Sequence record: SRR20825010_1489
DNA: 35,320 bases
Strand: one strand, 5' to 3'
Shown here piece by piece: positions 1,482 to 31,004 of the stretch. Made by a program: the position numbers and the translations under genes. The stretch's first letter is position 1. The number at the start of each line of letters is the position of its first letter. The notes under the pieces are model-generated. The model saw only the letters and a program-made list of their open reading frames with translations. It was not told where the DNA came from and made no database searches.

Positions 1482-1547
1482 TTAACCCACTGGCTCTCAC
1501 TTTCAAAGAGTCGTAGCGAGACGCCACAACCAGTGAGCGGAGATGGC

Positions 1548-1817
1548 TTATCGCTTTATTTCAAAGCCCTCAAATCCACTCGCTTCAATATTTTCTACAA
1601 ATACCTTTTCAACACTGGTATTGGATGGCCCATCATGGCACCATTTCACCAAAGCATTTAAGTTTTCATCGGAACCCTCAGCAATAATTAAAACAGATCC
1701 GTCTGGTTCATTCTTACACCAACCTTTAATACCAAGCCGCCTTGCTTGTTCTTGAGTTGACGCTCGAAAATAGACGCCTTGCACTTTACCTGTTACCTTA
1801 ATTCTTTTGGCTTGCAT
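1548..1817 (-). CDS. acyP: Acylphosphatase
   Basis: 'VTGKVQGVYFR' and 'GWCKNEPDGSV' signatures; start trimmed to MQAKR (ATG 1817), overlapping the deoC stop. Confidence 0.93.
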   Translation of the reverse strand: MQAKRIKVTGKVQGVYFRASTQEQARRLGIKGWCKNEPDGSVLIIAEGSDENLNALVKWCHDGPSNTSVEKVFVENIEASGFEGFEIKR

Positions 1818-9527: not shown

Positions 9528-10049
9528 ATGTTATTGGCAGACAAGAAAAAGAGACAGAACCTATCGGAATACATCGTTTACATGTACCAAACCGAAATGT
9601 TGGTTCGAAATTTTGAGTTCGATATTCAAAAGATTGAGAACCATGTGGTAAAGAATATTCATGAAGAAAGCTTAAATGCGGAAGGAAAAGCGGAATTGAC
9701 CGAGTGGTACAAAGTCATAATTGCTCAAATGAAGGAGGAAGCGCTAGAACGCGAAGGCCACCTGAGTTTTGTTCAGGAGGAAGTAAAACGCCTTTCTGAC
9801 CTTAGTCTACAGCTTCAGGTAAATGACGAAAACTATCGTGCAATTTTCAACCGTGCCCGCCCTGCTATTCGTGCTTCTATTGTTGAGTCTAATGGTTTAA
9901 TCAACGACCCCATTCAAGCTTGCCTTAATGGCATTTTGGGTCTACTGATTGCCAGAATGAATGGAAAAGAAATTCTAGACGACACCTTAGCACAGCTAGA
10001 TCACTTTGGGAATGTACTGTCTTATCTATCGATGAAGATTAGTTATTAG
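9528..10049 (+). CDS. Conserved Bacteroidota protein (DUF4924-like)
   Basis: 'KKRQNLSEYIVYMYQTE', 'WY....QMKEE....GHL' pattern recalled for this family; family call from memory. Confidence 0.75.
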   Translation: MLLADKKKRQNLSEYIVYMYQTEMLVRNFEFDIQKIENHVVKNIHEESLNAEGKAELTEWYKVIIAQMKEEALEREGHLSFVQEEVKRLSDLSLQLQVNDENYRAIFNRARPAIRASIVESNGLINDPIQACLNGILGLLIARMNGKEILDDTLAQLDHFGNVLSYLSMKISY

Positions 10050-10367
10050 TTAAGGGGTGATTAGTTATGAGGGGAAGAGGTATTGGTTAAGAGGAGTTAG
10101 TTAAGAGGTAAAGAGTTATTGGGAAAGAGGGAATCACTTGATCAGGGAATCCAGGGATTGGGAGTTTGACTGACTCCAAGCCTGTACCAGTTTTCTTAAC
10201 TTTTGTTCTTCAGTATTTGTGGGAATATAGAACTCGAATTTATAAGGAATGTTACTAATAACCCCTAACCAATACACCAGTAACTAATCCCCTGTTTTCT
10301 GATTTCCTGATCAACTATTTCTATTCTACTGATCACTCCTCCCTAATAACCAATACACTAATAACTA
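10040..10367. repeat. Long degenerate inverted-repeat element between convergent genes
   Basis: G-rich left arm and C-rich right arm; TAGTTATTAGT (10040-10050) / ACTAATAACTA (10357-10367); GTATTGGTTA (10080-10089) / TAACCAATAC (10266-10275 and 10347-10356); TTGATCAGG (10138-10146) / CCTGATCAA (10306-10314). Confidence 0.75.
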
Positions 10368-11174
10368 CTTCCCAAAGGGAGAGTCTGGTTCTTTCGCGAA
10401 AACATTGAATACGATTTTGTCCATTCGGCCGGGCATCCATTTATTGAGGAAAACGGCCAACTTACCTTGGCTGGTAAAAACAATGTCGCGCTTTCTTTTT
10501 TGAATGGCCTTGATAATGCCTTGCGCTACTTCTTCTGGGCTCATCATCTTCCCTTCATCGCGTGGAGATTCACCTTGGGAAGTTCCGTCCGCGGTAAGTG
10601 CGGCATTTCGGATATTCGTTCCAGTAAAGCCAGGGCAAGCCACGAGTACGTGAACACCTCTGTGCATTACTTCCGTACGCAATGACTCCATAAAGCCATT
10701 CATCGCATATTTTGAAGCGGTGTAAGCGGTTCTTGCGGGTGTACCTCGGTAACCGTTAATTGACGACACACCCACAATGGAGCCTTTCGTTTTTAGTATT
10801 TCCGGAAGGCAGTATTTGGTGGCGTAAAGGGTTCCGTAAAAGTTAATGTCCATTACTTTTTTGAAAACATCCATTTCGATTTCTTCAAAAAGCGCGCGCA
10901 TAGAAATGCCCGCATTATTGATCAGGATATCAATTTTACCAAAGGTTCTTACGGTTTCCTTAACGAGAATTTCATTGTCCTTTTCTTTGGCTACATCCAG
11001 TTGCAGACAAAGATTTCGCGTTTTCATGCCATCCAGAATTTCGGCCACTTCATTGAGTCGTGCTTCATTCCTACCAGTAATGACAATATGTGCGCCCAGT
11101 TTAGCAAACTCAATGGCCAATGCTTTTCCAATACCCGAAGAAGCTCCTGTGATGATGACAACTTTGTTTTTCAT
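10365..11174 (-). CDS. Short-chain dehydrogenase/reductase
   Basis: 'ITGASSGIG', 'NNAG', YxxxK 'YTASK'. Confidence 0.95.
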   Translation of the reverse strand: MKNKVVIITGASSGIGKALAIEFAKLGAHIVITGRNEARLNEVAEILDGMKTRNLCLQLDVAKEKDNEILVKETVRTFGKIDILINNAGISMRALFEEIEMDVFKKVMDINFYGTLYATKYCLPEILKTKGSIVGVSSINGYRGTPARTAYTASKYAMNGFMESLRTEVMHRGVHVLVACPGFTGTNIRNAALTADGTSQGESPRDEGKMMSPEEVAQGIIKAIQKRKRDIVFTSQGKLAVFLNKWMPGRMDKIVFNVFAKEPDSPFGK

Positions 11175-18273: not shown

Positions 18274-18729
18274 CTAATTAGGTCTTGATAACTTTGTGAA
18301 AGAGAGAGAGCCCAGCTTCCAACCATCATCCTTTTTAATATATACCTCCGTTACCATAAAAGGATTGGTGACCTCATTTCCACCAACAACTGCCAACAAA
18401 GTAATTCTATTTAGCAGAATGGCAGTGTTACCAATTACCTCTACAGAGGTCTCAAAAATATCCGCTTTTTTATAATGTATACCCCCACTTCTAATGATGT
18501 TGATTTCCTGCTCTTTCCCCCAAGCACCTCCCATATGTACGAAAACAGCTTTATCATCGAAGAGGTCTGTGAGTAACTCTACCTTTTTGTCAGCCATCCA
18601 GTCCCATTTGTTTTTAGAAAGGGCAATTATTCCCTGCTCTTCTTTGGTGAAAGAAGTCTGATTTGTCTGTCCTAGAGTATATAAGGATGAGAAGGTTAAG
18701 AGAAAAAATATAAATGTCAATTTTTTCAT
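18274..18729 (-). CDS. Secreted NTF2-like / DUF4440 family protein
   Basis: Signal peptide; 'LFDDKAVFVHMGG', 'TEVYIKKDDGWKL'. Confidence 0.85.
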   Translation of the reverse strand: MKKLTFIFFLLTFSSLYTLGQTNQTSFTKEEQGIIALSKNKWDWMADKKVELLTDLFDDKAVFVHMGGAWGKEQEINIIRSGGIHYKKADIFETSVEVIGNTAILLNRITLLAVVGGNEVTNPFMVTEVYIKKDDGWKLGSLSFTKLSRPN

Positions 18730-23255: not shown

Positions 23256-24308
23256 TCACAAAACCTGCTTCAGAAGTTGGATGTAAAACTCAATCCCCTC
23301 TTCTATTTCATGGATGAAAACGAATTCATCGGCTGTATGTGATCGCGCAGAATCACCAACACCGATCTTTAAAGAAGGATAAGGCATGAGCGCCTGATCA
23401 GACATGGTTGGAGAGCCATAAGTTCTTCTCCCCAAATCAATTCCCGCCTGAACAATCGGATGCTCTACTGGAATGGAGGAAGGATTCAATCTAGTCGACC
23501 TTGGCTCTACCTTGGATTTGACATGCGCTCTGATAATTTCTAGAATTTGGGTGTTCGAATAACAATCTGTGCTGCGCACATCCACCACAAACTTACATTC
23601 ATCGGGCACTACGTTGTGCTGCTGGCCTGCATTAATCATCGTCACAGACATACGCACCGGCCCTAGGGTTTTTGAAATTTCATCAAAGGTATAGGTACGG
23701 AACCATTCAAGATCCTTCATGGCTTTGTAAATGGCGTTCTCCCCTTCGTTTCGGGCAGCGTGGCCTGATTTCCCCGTAGCCACGCAATCCAACACCATCA
23801 AACCTTTTTCTGCGATCGCTAAATCAAGCAAAGTAGGCTCGCCTACGATGGCGAAATCTATATCGCCCAGTTCTTCTAGAATACTTTCCACCCCATTCTT
23901 TCCAGAAATTTCTTCTTCGGCCGAAGCCGCTAAAATCAAATTATATTTCAGATTCGGTTCATTATAGAAATTCAGAAAACAAGCCATGAGAGAAACCAGA
24001 CTCGCTCCAGCATCATTGCTTCCCAAGCCGTAAAGCTTACCGTCTTCCACCTCAGGAGAAAATGGATCTTTGGTGTAGCCCACATTGGGTTTTACGGTAT
24101 CGTGATGTGAATTGAGCAGAATGGTGGGTTTACTGGCATCGAAATGCAAGTTCTTCACCCAAATGTTGTTGCCTTTTCTTTGGGTTGAAATTCCTTTATC
24201 CTGAAAAAAGGCTTGAATCAAATCAGCCGTTTTATCCTCTTCTTTACTGAAAGAAGGAATAGCAATAAGCTGTTTTAGTAAATCGAGTGCTTCGTTGAAT
24301 AACTGCAT
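23256..24308 (-). CDS. argE: M20 family deacylase (ArgE; acetylornithine deacetylase / acyl-citrulline deacylase)
   Basis: 'LNSHHDTV', 'YGLGSNDAG', 'AEEE', 'VGEPT', 'SHTADE'; last gene of the arg operon. Confidence 0.88.
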   Translation of the reverse strand: MQLFNEALDLLKQLIAIPSFSKEEDKTADLIQAFFQDKGISTQRKGNNIWVKNLHFDASKPTILLNSHHDTVKPNVGYTKDPFSPEVEDGKLYGLGSNDAGASLVSLMACFLNFYNEPNLKYNLILAASAEEEISGKNGVESILEELGDIDFAIVGEPTLLDLAIAEKGLMVLDCVATGKSGHAARNEGENAIYKAMKDLEWFRTYTFDEISKTLGPVRMSVTMINAGQQHNVVPDECKFVVDVRSTDCYSNTQILEIIRAHVKSKVEPRSTRLNPSSIPVEHPIVQAGIDLGRRTYGSPTMSDQALMPYPSLKIGVGDSARSHTADEFVFIHEIEEGIEFYIQLLKQVL

Positions 24309-28199: not shown

Positions 28200-29394
28200 T
28201 TTCTTGATTTACTTGGTGGTAAATGGCACTTTGGTTACCGAAAATCTTCGCGAAGCCTTTAACGTCATCGCCCGTCCAAGCATTGTTCATTTCACCATAG
28301 TTGCCAAACTTGGCCGACATTAAATCATGCTCAGATTCAATTCCAATCAGTTGATAGCGGTAAGGCAAAAGCTTGAAAAAGGCTTTGCCCGTCACAAATT
28401 TCTGACTGCTTTGCATCATGGTTTCTAAATCACGCATAACAGGATCCATAAACTGACCTTCATGCAGCCAGTTGCCATAAAAAGCTGCTACTTGGTCTTT
28501 CCAGTAAATTTGCCATTTGGTCAAAATATGTTTCTCTAAAGCCTGATGCCCTTTGATGGTAAGGATGGCAGCCGAAGCTTCAAAACCAACCCTTCCTTTG
28601 ATTCCAATAATGGTATCACCCACATGGATATCGCGCCCAATGCCAAATGGTGCTGCTATTTTCTCCAAAACCTGAATGGCTTCATATGAATGCTCGAACT
28701 CCTTCCCATTAATTGACTTCAACTCGCCTTTTTCAAAACCAAGCTCCAAGTCCTCTCCAACGGTTTTCGTTACTTGAGTCGGCCAAGCTTCTTCTGGTAA
28801 ATAACCTTTAGAAGTCAAGGTTTCCTTTCCTCCTATCGAAGTTCCCCACAGACCTTTATTAATAGAATAAGCAGATTTCGAAAAGTCCATATCTACACCT
28901 TTCGATTGTAAATAGGCGATTTCCTCTTCTCTCGAAAGCCTCATATCTCGAATAGGAGTGATGATCTCCGCATCGGGCAGATAGGTTTGGAAAATCATAT
29001 CGAAACGCACTTGGTCGTTTCCAGCCCCAGTGCTTCCGTGCGCTATATATTCTGGGTTAAGCGTTTTGGCGTATTTCGCAATCGCCATTGCCTGGCTTAC
29101 CCTTTCAGCACTTACAGAAAGTGGATAAGTGCTGTTCTTCAGCACGTTGCCAAAAATCAAGTACTTGATGACGCTTGAATAATAGTTAGAAGTCTCTTCA
29201 ATCGTTTTGTGGCTGGTTACGCCCATTGCATAGGCACGCTTTTCAACTTCGTCTAGTTCCTTCTGAGAAAAACCGCCCGTATTCACCAATACAGAATGAA
29301 TTTCTAAGCCACGTTCTTCACTCAAATATTTTACACAATAAGAGGTATCGAGCCCTCCACTATAGGCTAAAACTACTTTCTTCTTATTCATCAT
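28192..29394 (-). CDS. argG: Argininosuccinate synthase
   Basis: 'VLAYSGGLDTS', 'HGSTGAGNDQVRF'. Confidence 0.96.
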   Translation of the reverse strand: MMNKKKVVLAYSGGLDTSYCVKYLSEERGLEIHSVLVNTGGFSQKELDEVEKRAYAMGVTSHKTIEETSNYYSSVIKYLIFGNVLKNSTYPLSVSAERVSQAMAIAKYAKTLNPEYIAHGSTGAGNDQVRFDMIFQTYLPDAEIITPIRDMRLSREEEIAYLQSKGVDMDFSKSAYSINKGLWGTSIGGKETLTSKGYLPEEAWPTQVTKTVGEDLELGFEKGELKSINGKEFEHSYEAIQVLEKIAAPFGIGRDIHVGDTIIGIKGRVGFEASAAILTIKGHQALEKHILTKWQIYWKDQVAAFYGNWLHEGQFMDPVMRDLETMMQSSQKFVTGKAFFKLLPYRYQLIGIESEHDLMSAKFGNYGEMNNAWTGDDVKGFAKIFGNQSAIYHQVNQEND

Positions 29395-30064
29395 TTTTCT
29401 TTCTTTTGGCCTCAGCCTTCAACAAAATATTCTTCTTAAAATTTACCCAACGCTCAAACAAACTGAAGTCTTTATCCAACTCGCGTTCAACCCATTGCGT
29501 TCTCTTAGGCTTTACGTTCTTCTCCCATTCTGGATTGAACAGCATGGCAGTACAAATACAATTTGACCTGTTTTTAGACTTTAGTATCTCATAATTCACA
29601 CAGCTTTGACAGCCTTTCCAGAAATCCTCGTCTTGGGTCAATTCAGAATACACCACGGGTTTATAACCCAATTCGGAGTTGATTTTTAGCACCGCTGCAC
29701 CTGTAGTAAGCCCGAAGATTTTTGCTGTTGGGTACTTCTTTCTTGACAGTCTAAATATTGCCGCCTTAATACGTTTTGACAAACCTAATCCACGAAATTG
29801 GTGAGAAACAATGAGTCCCGAATTGGCCACGAATTTCTCATGACTCCACACTTCTATGTAGCAGAAACCTGCCCATTCGCCTGATTCGGTTACCGCCACA
29901 ACGGCCTTACCTTCTCGTATTTTTAGCGATACGTATTCGGGGGTTCTTCGCGCAATTCCAGTCCCTCTAATTTTGGCTGAATTAGCAATTTCTTCTATAA
30001 TATCGTCTGTAAAGCGGGTATCTTCTTCTGTCGCTACCCTAATTATGAACTTTGTTGATTCCAT
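29384..30064 (-). CDS. GNAT acyltransferase, Bacteroidota ArgA-equivalent (glutamate N-acyltransferase)
   Basis: 'RGTGIARR', 'ANSGLIV...FRGLGL', 'FGLTTG.AV.KINS.LGY.PV', 'CQSC...CIC'; first gene of the arg operon, overlapping argG. Alternative GTG start at 30070. Confidence 0.85.
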   Translation of the reverse strand: MESTKFIIRVATEEDTRFTDDIIEEIANSAKIRGTGIARRTPEYVSLKIREGKAVVAVTESGEWAGFCYIEVWSHEKFVANSGLIVSHQFRGLGLSKRIKAAIFRLSRKKYPTAKIFGLTTGAAVLKINSELGYKPVVYSELTQDEDFWKGCQSCVNYEILKSKNRSNCICTAMLFNPEWEKNVKPKRTQWVERELDKDFSLFERWVNFKKNILLKAEAKRKKNDE

Positions 30065-30169
30065 TTTCACTGTAATTCTGGATCGAGAAAACGACTTAAT
30101 GTTTTCAGAAATCCCAAAAGGAAATATGATTTAAAATTTAGAAAAGAATATAGGTAATATTGGGGACTT

Positions 30170-30213
30170 GACTACCGCATAGGTAGTCTATATATATGAG
30201 GCGACTAGCGCCT
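30170..30213 (-). promoter_or_regulatory. Candidate attenuator hairpins upstream of the arg operon
   Basis: Minus strand AGGCG-CTAGT-CGCCT (30213-30199) and GACTACC-TATGC-GGTAGTC (30188-30170), with alternative TAGTC/GACTA pairing between them. Confidence 0.55.
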
Positions 30214-30297
30214 AAAAAACTTAGGTGTATACACAGCAACCTCAGACACAGGGAGTGTCATGTTTATGGTTGATGATATGTTCGCTTTGTTCTTCAT
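30205..30297 (-). CDS. Putative leader peptide MKNKANISSTINMTLPVSEVAVYTPKFFRR (30 aa)
   Basis: ATG 14 nt downstream of the -7-like box TTCCTTTG (30312-30319); its only Arg codons are the final AGG CGC before TAG. Confidence 0.6.
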   Translation of the reverse strand: MKNKANISSTINMTLPVSEVAVYTPKFFRR

Positions 30298-30395
30298 TCT
30301 GAAATGAGGGACAAAGGAAATCAAAAGTTTGGTAGGAACAACGGTTTTATTCAGGAATTTTAAAAACCTGACAAAAATGATTCGAAACAAACTAT

Positions 30396-31004
30396 TTACG
30401 CACTCAATTTACCGTAACCCGCTGGTGGTCTGCGATATGCATAATAGCTCATTACCACTTCAATTGCTTGGCGAATTGCTTTGTTGATAGGCATCATTTT
30501 AGTGCCTAGCTCTGTATCGATACTGCGGAGCCTAAAATAATAGTCACTCATCATTGGGGCAGGAATACCGTCTTCTATGTCTTTCTCAATTTTAGCAATC
30601 GTATCTGCCTGCCCTGCTTTCATTAGTTTACAGGTAATGAACTGAGCCTTCCCGTTTTTATCGCGTGTGGCCGAATAACCAAAAAGGCGACAGATTAGAC
30701 CACGGTAGACGTATTGTGAGCAACCTCCTTTGTCTAGAGAGTCTTTCACAGGGTTGAACAGCGTACACATTGAACTTTCATTCGTCAACAAATTCTGATA
30801 AAATTCATCAATTCGCTTGGTCAGAAAAAGGTGAAAAGCATATGGAAGAAACTCTAATGGAGTTGCCTCTATATCGGCCTTGAAGCAGCATTTACCACAG
30901 CCAGAAACACAATGAAGCCCACTATTATCGCGCAGGGTGTTCATTTCTTGCTCAAGGGCGGCAAAAATCTTTTCTACCGATTTTACTTTTCTGACGATTG
31001 ACAT
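30396..31004 (-). CDS. YkgJ family cysteine-cluster protein
   Basis: 'CVSGCGKCC', 'MCTLF', 'CSQYVYRGLICRLFG'; TACCTTCG box at 31013-31020. Confidence 0.88.
   Translation of the reverse strand: MSIVRKVKSVEKIFAALEQEMNTLRDNSGLHCVSGCGKCCFKADIEATPLEFLPYAFHLFLTKRIDEFYQNLLTNESSMCTLFNPVKDSLDKGGCSQYVYRGLICRLFGYSATRDKNGKAQFITCKLMKAGQADTIAKIEKDIEDGIPAPMMSDYYFRLRSIDTELGTKMMPINKAIRQAIEVVMSYYAYRRPPAGYGKLSA

Follow-up and report, generated by a model that had tools for sequence, protein, structure and literature searches.

A conserved leader open reading frame with terminal arginine codons upstream of the arginine operon of Roseivirga and other Bacteroidota: a candidate arginine-sensing attenuator

Introduction

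Arginine biosynthesis is classically under the control of the ArgR repressor. What, then, reports the supply of arginine to an arginine biosynthesis (arg) operon in bacteria in which no ArgR is found? This question is raised by a stretch of DNA of 35,320 nucleotides (nt) from sequence record SRR20825010_1489, which is referred to as the window and which belongs to a marine member of the Bacteroidota, of the genus Roseivirga (Cytophagales). On the minus strand of the window, a short leader open reading frame (ORF), followed by two hairpins, precedes an operon that begins with a GNAT-family N-acetyltransferase gene (GNAT; the protein is 95–96% identical to that of the nearest species) and continues, according to NCBIfam matches, in the order argG, argC, argD, N-acyl-ornithine carbamoyltransferase (argF′), argB and an ArgE-like deacylase, down to position 23256.

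A preliminary description of this locus, made from the letters of the sequence, had proposed an arginine-sensing leader peptide and attenuator. The parts that it listed are present on the minus strand: a −7-like box, an ORF encoding 30 amino acids whose only arginine codons are the AGG and CGC directly before the TAG stop codon, a hairpin over these codons and the stop codon (hairpin 1), and a second hairpin of seven base pairs, 10 nt later (hairpin 2). Comparison of related genomes leaves an arginine-sensing leader as the best reading, because of the conservation of the ORF, the compensatory changes in hairpin 2, the absence of ArgR and the existence of a histidine twin of the leader. The mutually exclusive pairing that it had also proposed did not hold up in this comparison as a conserved feature. 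In what follows, the evidence for the leader is presented, the way in which it may act is considered, and other explanations are weighed against it.

Conservation of the leader ORF within Roseivirga

The genus was represented by 30 loci, picked by GNAT homology alone, and the window, i.e., 31 sequences of which 27 are distinct. In all 31, an ORF beginning with ATG and ending with AGG-CG[C/G/T]-TA[A/G] lies 111–185 nt before GNAT. It is 27–32 codons long, except in two sequences where an in-frame ATG further upstream makes it longer. The interior of the peptide is free to vary, whereas its start codon, its length and its Arg-Arg-stop ending have been kept in 31 of 31; in more distant Roseivirga species the tail gains arginines (e.g., ...RARTRRR and ...IRQDRR). 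Among the last 10 codons of the leaders, 38% specify arginine (91/240, in 24 distinct sequences) compared with 3.8% in the genes of the window, and AGG provides 62 of these 91 arginine codons, compared with 14.7% of the arginine codons in window genes.

Leaders were counted by strict criteria: an ATG-initiated ORF of 20–70 amino acids, with its stop codon 60–300 nt before GNAT, arginine at position −2 and at least two arginines in the last eight residues. By these criteria a leader is present in 31 of the 31 genus sequences, in four of their reverse complements, and in a mean of 0.41 (maximum 3) for 100 dinucleotide shuffles. The leader peptides have no match among the NCBIfam or Pfam families, and the exact peptides are absent from a collection of 15 billion called proteins. 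Taken together, the comparisons support the views that the mRNA of the operon has near its 5′ end an ORF that is probably translated, and that selection acts to keep the terminal arginine codons of this ORF.

A putative promoter lies upstream of the ORF. The promoter consensus of Bacteroidota is TTG-N19-TAnnTTTG, and a scan for sigma-70 promoters is uninformative for this phylum (44 sites found, 44.1 expected). A TTCCTTTG box is located 16–24 nt upstream of the leader ATG in 26 of the 31 genus sequences, with AAACTTTT ahead of the box; only four of the 31 have a TAnnTTTG box between the leader and GNAT. Most genus sequences also have the hexamer ACATAT about 16–24 nt downstream of the leader ATG, in differing reading frames (encoding N-I-S or S-T-Y), a recurrence that suggests that the beginning of the transcript may be constrained at the level of nucleotides.

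Structure of the leader RNA

The 260-nt leader folds better than all of 200 shuffles (200/200; z = −4.1). Six of the seven base pairs of hairpin 2 change on both sides, with 95.8% of cells paired, in the 31 genus sequences, which had not been selected for the hairpin; sliding the partner by 1–3 columns lowers the pairing of the two-hairpin structure to 27–55%. The loop and its closing pairs, CC-UAYGY-GG, are conserved, and 15–18 nt separate the stop codon from hairpin 2 in 29 of 29 genus sequences. Hairpin 2 is present in other Cytophagales families too, and an order-wide set of 55 Cytophagales sequences gives a similar picture of covariation, the percentage of paired cells in that set being circular because it was selected by the loop pattern and a stem of at least five pairs. 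Both AGG and the loop of hairpin 2 are conserved at the nucleotide level across Cytophagales.

Hairpin 1 is made of the coding sequence itself: its 5′ arm consists of the arginine codons and its loop contains the stop codon. Its fold has a z-score below −1 in 19 of 21 distinct genus sequences, and covariation is lacking inside the genus because the 5′ arm is invariant. In other clades, a small hairpin containing the stop codon is built from other arms: CAGGG/CCCUG, GGCC/GGCC, CGCCC/GGGCG, GUCCC/GGGAC, UUUAGUA/UACUAAA and ACGCU/AGCGU.

The preliminary description had further proposed that TAGTC at the stop codon can pair with GACTA of hairpin 2, rendering the two hairpins mutually exclusive. 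The pairing does exist in the window; however, it is restricted to the clade of the window, and RNAalifold predicts hairpin 2 alone. Two other pairings were considered and rejected. A UCCCC motif is predicted to pair with a downstream GGGA in the window, but in close relatives the partner is altered without compensation; and pairing of the hairpin 2 loop with the AGG codons is set aside, as many histidine leaders have the same loop without AGG codons. A search of Rfam gave no relevant match in positions 29900-30500 at E values up to 10, nor in five related loci at E values up to 1.

A histidine twin upstream of hisG

A model built from the arg leaders finds one strong match per Roseivirga genome, namely the arg leader. 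An extra match (E = 5.6e-4) lies upstream of hisG-hisD. All of the 30 Roseivirga hisG loci (30/30) have a leader ending in ...AHHxHHFHHLS, with 4–6 histidines among the last 12 residues, and in all 30 the order is the same: the histidine-rich ORF comes first, its stop codon is enclosed in the loop of a hairpin (AUCUCUC-UUGA-GAGAGAU), and hairpin 2 follows after a spacer. The hairpin 2 of the his leaders has the arg-type loop, CC-UACGC-GG, in many of the 30 and a different loop in the clade of the window. The 50 nt that follow it are likewise poor in G (7.5%). Thus, the arg and his operons of these bacteria have one platform in which the codons have been swapped to match the operon, and no other finding argues as strongly for an ORF that is read and for cognate codons as the sensor.

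In a complete genome, a model of hairpin 2 only recovers the arg and his leaders and no other leader; the idea that further amino-acid operons have the same hairpin was rejected, since the remaining matches fall inside coding regions. Algoriphagus has a similar his leader, and Pedobacter has a short histidine leader with a canonical terminator. One of the his leaders (locus L190, positions 1495-1671, minus strand; further his loci are L193-L222) has a TATATTTG box 7 nt before its ATG, and the his mRNA of that locus may, judging from this spacing, be nearly leaderless.

Distribution in Cytophagales and Bacteroidota

The comparison with relatives favors the original proposal, in that an ORF ending in arginine codons is conserved not only in the genus (31/31) but also in the order and in the phylum. 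An even sample of Cytophagales has leaders, by the strict criteria, in 23 of 60 regions upstream of GNAT (reverse complements, 0; shuffle maximum, 4); this is an underestimate, because variants with arginine at −3 or with a later stop codon fail the criteria. Named loci from Bacteroidota have them in 67 of 79 (reverse complements, 2; shuffle maximum, 5). For a sample of the phylum, consisting of 56 regions upstream of GNAT outside Cytophagales, a looser criterion was used (an ORF of 12–80 amino acids with at least three arginines in the last 10), and leaders were found in 34 of 56, against 3 in the reverse complements and a mean of 3.3 (maximum 8) in shuffles.

Leaders are commonly 30–44 codons long, with lengths conserved within clades, and most end in Arg-X-stop or Arg-Arg-stop. 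The tails are characteristic of each clade: ...RRxRFFFRV in Algoriphagus, ...FRNVFRA in Cyclobacterium, ...TSRQNFTPRI in Pedobacter and ...FRVRR in a Chitinophagaceae-like group, such that only arginine and aromatic residues recur across clades. Twenty-two leaders of the Pedobacter type all have Thr(−4), Pro(−3), Arg(−2) and Ile(−1), for which 3, 4, 5 and 2 different codons are used, respectively, and three different stop codons occur among them. As Arg(−2) is specified by five different codons, it is an arginine codon that has been kept and not a string of nucleotides. In a family from another class (f44; L256-L293), leaders of 21–23 codons of the type MQKSLAHRIDRRSVRRIPRRR (...RRSVRRIPRRR), with 4–6 arginines in the last 10 residues, occur in 20 of 20 genomes. 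In the folds of this family, the last arginine codons and the stop codon pair with a segment about 35–40 nt downstream, enclosing an inner hairpin.

Several variants of the arrangement were seen. In Belliella and Aquiflexum (L120, L123, L147) the ORF extends four codons beyond the conserved F-R-[A/V], which leaves only 5 nt between its stop codon and hairpin 2; the AGG codon and hairpin 2 are still about 26 nt apart. Algoriphagus and Pedobacter have a further hairpin near the GNAT start. Some loci of a Sphingobacteriales type (L174, L176, L171, L243) have an arginine-tailed leader (...LRFRRPFMPRT or ...VRRPYMPRA) followed by two canonical terminators in tandem, the first being AAGACTA...TAGTCTT with a T-run and the second a hairpin with a T-run just before GNAT; from its sequence, this clade probably uses intrinsic termination. 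Another family (f24; L268, L274, L276, L279, L282, L285) has a conserved ORF of 28 residues, MNKISLHITSLSRT...SPEVRML.., with few arginines, about 220–230 nt before GNAT; in L272 and L277 a second stretch, closer to GNAT, ends in ...FRRP-stop or ...RRP-stop and lacks an in-frame ATG, its stop codon being enclosed in a hairpin. These stretches may be leaders with non-ATG starts, which a search for ATG only would miss.

Distribution of ArgR

The preliminary description reported no argR in the window, and a tblastn search of the window with two ArgR sequences from Bacteroidota agrees, the best E value being 2.4. The C-terminal domain of ArgR (PF02863) was found in none of five Roseivirga genomes and none of 201 Cytophagales genomes, while control genomes gave matches. 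In the phylum sample of 151 genomes, GNAT is present in 59 and ArgR in 65, and only three have both. One of these three has an ArgR match at the level of the cut-off, with an internal stop codon; the other two are clear cases, and in them argR is the gene immediately before GNAT and an arginine-rich leader is absent.

The G-poor tract and the output of the leader

The tract that follows hairpin 2 was described at the outset as G-poor and without a U-run. It contains one G in 50 nt, which makes it an outlier for the whole strand: it is one of four places on the strand with at most one G per 50 nt (0.24% of 50-nt windows). Further stretches with at most one G per 50 nt are found at 10027-10136 and 18673-18726 (minus strand) and at 10310-10376 (plus strand). 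The mean composition of the 50 nt after hairpin 2, over 29 arg leaders, is 7.0% G and 19.7% C.

Hairpin 2 was considered as a canonical terminator of the arg operon and rejected in that role: a U-run, taken as at least five T within 8 nt after the hairpin, is present in none of 29 arg leaders. A scan of the window for intrinsic terminators gave none on the strand of the leader, although canonical hairpin-plus-U terminators exist elsewhere in the window, and a T-rich tail follows the hairpin in only four of 25 his leaders. Rho is present in five of five Roseivirga genomes (the Rho_N domain in ORFs of 545–566 amino acids). Because there is no U-run, no antiterminator and an extremely G-poor tract, Rho or another factor is the best candidate for the output of the leader. 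We regard the specific choice of Rho as plausible rather than probable.

Several Roseivirga species (loci L025, L028, L029, L031, L033, L036, L037, L039-L041) have palindromic repeat-like elements (GTCATTGCGA...TCGCAATGAC; GTCATTCTGA...) between the G-poor tract and the GNAT start. These insertions add about 60–100 nt to the 5′ untranslated region, and the leader is kept. Since the repeats sit downstream of the tract and leave the leader intact, the regulatory decision is probably made near hairpin 2, upstream of the repeats.

Layout of the locus

The features of the leader region and of the genes next to it are given in Table 1. The longest ORF of GNAT opens at GTG 30070; in an alignment, the ATG at 30064 (ATGGAA) matches the start in relatives, and it is probably the true start.

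Table 1. Positions of the leader, its RNA elements and the adjoining genes in the window
Feature	Position	Strand	Basis or remark
CxxCxxCC-domain protein gene, upstream neighbour	end at 30396	minus	precedes the leader region
Putative Bacteroidota-type promoter	30312-30341	minus	TTG at 30341-30339, 19-nt spacer, −7-like box
−7-like box TTCCTTTG	30319-30312	minus	ends 14 nt before leader ATG
Leader ORF, 30 codons plus stop codon, peptide MKNKANISSTINMTLPVSEVAVYTPKFFRR	30297-30205	minus	translation
Arginine codons and stop codon	AGG 30213-30211, CGC 30210-30208, then TAG 30207-30205	minus	end of leader ORF
Hairpin 1, AGGCG / loop CTAGT / CGCCT	30213-30199	minus	sequence and folding
A/U spacer CATATATATA, 10 nt, joining hairpins 1 and 2	30189-30198	minus	
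Hairpin 2, GACTACC / loop TATGC / GGTAGTC	30188-30170	minus	sequence and covariation
G-poor tract starting AAGTCCCC, candidate Rho loading/termination zone	30116-30169 (30115-30171 in the base counts)	minus	base counts
GNAT-family N-acetyltransferase, operon gene 1	29384-30070	minus	NCBIfam match

How the leader may work

Comparison of the sequences shows conservation of the ORF, of its terminal arginine codons, of the two hairpins and of the G-poor tract; the platform has a histidine twin, and ArgR is absent. From these features, we judge it probable that the leader is a ribosome-mediated attenuator reporting the supply of arginine to the arg operon. In this mechanism, the mRNA of the operon would begin a few bases before the 30-codon leader. 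A shortage of charged tRNA-Arg would make the ribosome stall at the terminal AGG-CGC, where it would melt and cover hairpin 1 and remain on the leader. When arginine is plentiful, the ribosome would reach the stop codon and leave, whereupon hairpins 1 and 2 could form and RNA polymerase would be halted early in, or after, the G-poor tract, most likely through Rho, as there is no U-run. The parked ribosome might block Rho arriving from the leader RNA, or might keep the polymerase coupled. We infer that stalling raises expression, that the output is the termination of transcription, and that Rho executes it.

Several points weigh against this mechanism. With regard to structure, RNAalifold, applied to 205 nt of the 31 genus sequences, recovers hairpin 2 only and no conserved alternative structure or antiterminator; no conserved alternative pairing therefore ties the position of the ribosome to hairpin 2, and a ribosome stalled at the arginine codons would cover hairpin 1, not hairpin 2 or the G-poor tract. 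With regard to Rho, the tract is not enriched in C (19.7%, compared with about 19–22% in the window), and the body of the leader ORF, considered as a place where Rho might load, has only a mild skew of C over G (G 17–19% and C 20–23%; the arg coding sequence has G 24.5% and C 18.3%). With regard to the sensor, the leader of the window has only two arginine codons, and the Thr, Pro, Ile and Gln of the Pedobacter-type leaders are conserved at the amino-acid level despite synonymous changes, for which codon sensing alone is insufficient. Finally, the criteria that define a leader were chosen after the data had been seen, and related genomes are non-independent observations.

Alternative explanations

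The first alternative retains the sensor and changes the output: the position of the ribosome would set the stability of the mRNA, or the translation of GNAT, and not termination. The lack of a canonical terminator and of an antiterminator would be accounted for, and the extra hairpin near the GNAT start in Algoriphagus and Pedobacter could find a role, as could the dependence of start-site choice in Bacteroidota on unstructured mRNA that is described in the abstract of PMC6847099. However, the repeats of about 60–100 nt that lie between the tract and GNAT while the leader is kept speak against a long-range contact with the start codon, and in a Sphingobacteriales clade canonical terminators do follow the leader. 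We consider this alternative unlikely.

The second alternative changes the sensor: the leader peptide would, while still being made, act with free arginine or some metabolite related to it to arrest the ribosome at the last codons or at the stop codon, and the parked ribosome would set the fate of the transcript. TnaC and SpeFL in bacteria, and the arginine attenuator peptide of fungi, work by this logic. A peptide that is read as a peptide would fit the Thr-Pro-Arg-Ile-stop of the 22 Pedobacter-type leaders, kept despite synonymous changes and three different stop codons; it would also fit the length of the leaders (30–44 codons, conserved within clades, mostly with an Arg-X-stop or Arg-Arg-stop end), the location of the stop codon inside a hairpin, and the lack of an alternative RNA structure. 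Against arrest stand the his leader of Roseivirga, which is a plain run of histidine codons on the same RNA platform, the divergence of the C-terminal sequences between clades in everything but the arginines, the leaders of Belliella and Aquiflexum, which run on for four codons past the conserved arginine, and the 4–6 arginines in the last 10 residues in some clades, as codon sensing predicts. An arrest-peptide leader, in which a parked ribosome beside a hairpin that has no U-run and a CC-UAYGY-GG loop gates Rho or another factor, is in our estimation quite improbable. Were it correct, the control of arginine and of histidine in Cytophagales would share a previously undescribed, terminator-less expression platform.

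A structured RNA, formed by hairpins 1 and 2 and bound by a protein or a small ligand, with the ORF being incidental, would explain why AGG and the hairpin 2 loop are conserved as nucleotides across Cytophagales, and a protein could bind the CC-UAYGY-GG loop, which arg and his leaders have in common. This does not accord with an ORF that is kept open, with ATG and length conserved in 31 of 31 while the body diverges, nor with synonymous variation at Arg(−2), nor with tails that are rich in arginine before arg genes and in histidine before his genes; in addition, there is no Rfam match, and such an RNA is very improbable. That the ORF encodes a stable small protein with a function of its own, co-expressed with the arg genes, is scarcely tenable, for, although the ORF is conserved (in some clades at the amino-acid level), it matches no Pfam or NCBIfam family, varies greatly between clades, has a fixed 5′ position together with hairpins, and has a his analogue that suggests a regulatory role.

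Relation to known systems

The arg leader resembles the classical attenuators (trpL, hisL, leuL, thrL, pheL, ilvL) in having a short ORF at the 5′ end with cognate codons, followed by hairpins, and in the logic of stalling according to the charging of tRNA. It differs from them in several respects: its amino acid is arginine, for which we found no described bacterial example; its regulatory codons are the very last of the ORF; the leader is long (30–44 codons); and it has neither a U-run terminator (0/29) nor a conserved antiterminator, so that two defining features of the classical attenuators are missing.

The leaders tnaC (of tna), mgtL (of mgtA) and speFL (of speF) are alike in that an untranslated stretch, poor in G and lacking an intrinsic terminator, comes after the leader ORF, and in that the action of Rho is proposed to depend on where the ribosome stands towards the end of that ORF. 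These leaders are enterobacterial and sense tryptophan, proline/Mg2+ and ornithine, respectively; in tnaC and speFL it is the nascent peptide that senses the ligand. In the arg leader, by contrast, the arginine codons are likely the sensor, and the G-poor tract, which is not enriched in C, would be left uncovered by a stalled ribosome. The fungal arginine attenuator peptide (the upstream ORF of arg-2/CPA1) likewise lies before an arginine biosynthesis gene; this eukaryotic element works on ribosomes that scan the mRNA, its nascent peptide being what senses free arginine, and for the leader described here the response to arginine is a prediction. Within the same phylum, the Bacteroid-trp motif of Rfam, presumed to be a tryptophan leader, is also a peptide-leader element; its amino acid and structure differ, and it gives no match to the arg leader.

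The preliminary description knew of no arg attenuator of this form in Bacteroidota, and the literature search concurs: no article describing an arginine leader peptide in this phylum was found, although the supplements of PMC9723704 could list one. In the part of that article that was available, amino-acid operons of Flavobacterium psychrophilum are suspected of having leader-peptide attenuation upstream. The accessible part of PMC2965389 contains no arginine leader and no Bacteroidetes, and in that of PMC4833913 Bacteroidetes appear only in statistics on the distance between leader and gene, with no such element.

Significance for the Bacteroidota

An arginine leader-peptide attenuator would depart from the textbook control of arginine synthesis by the ArgR repressor. 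The device occurs across a large and ecologically important phylum, in members of which ArgR was not found (0/201 Cytophagales genomes; 56 of the 59 GNAT-positive genomes of the phylum sample without it). As an element it is compact, and it could be useful for annotation, for a family model of the RNA and leader, and for arginine-responsive switches in Bacteroidota hosts.

The signals for translation and transcription in Bacteroidota differ from those of model organisms. In both the arg and the his leaders, a covarying hairpin with a conserved loop, the lack of a U-run and a G-poor tract together point to Rho-dependent, or otherwise non-canonical, attenuation in this phylum. The arg leader probably explains how the synthesis of arginine is regulated in those Bacteroidota that lack ArgR.

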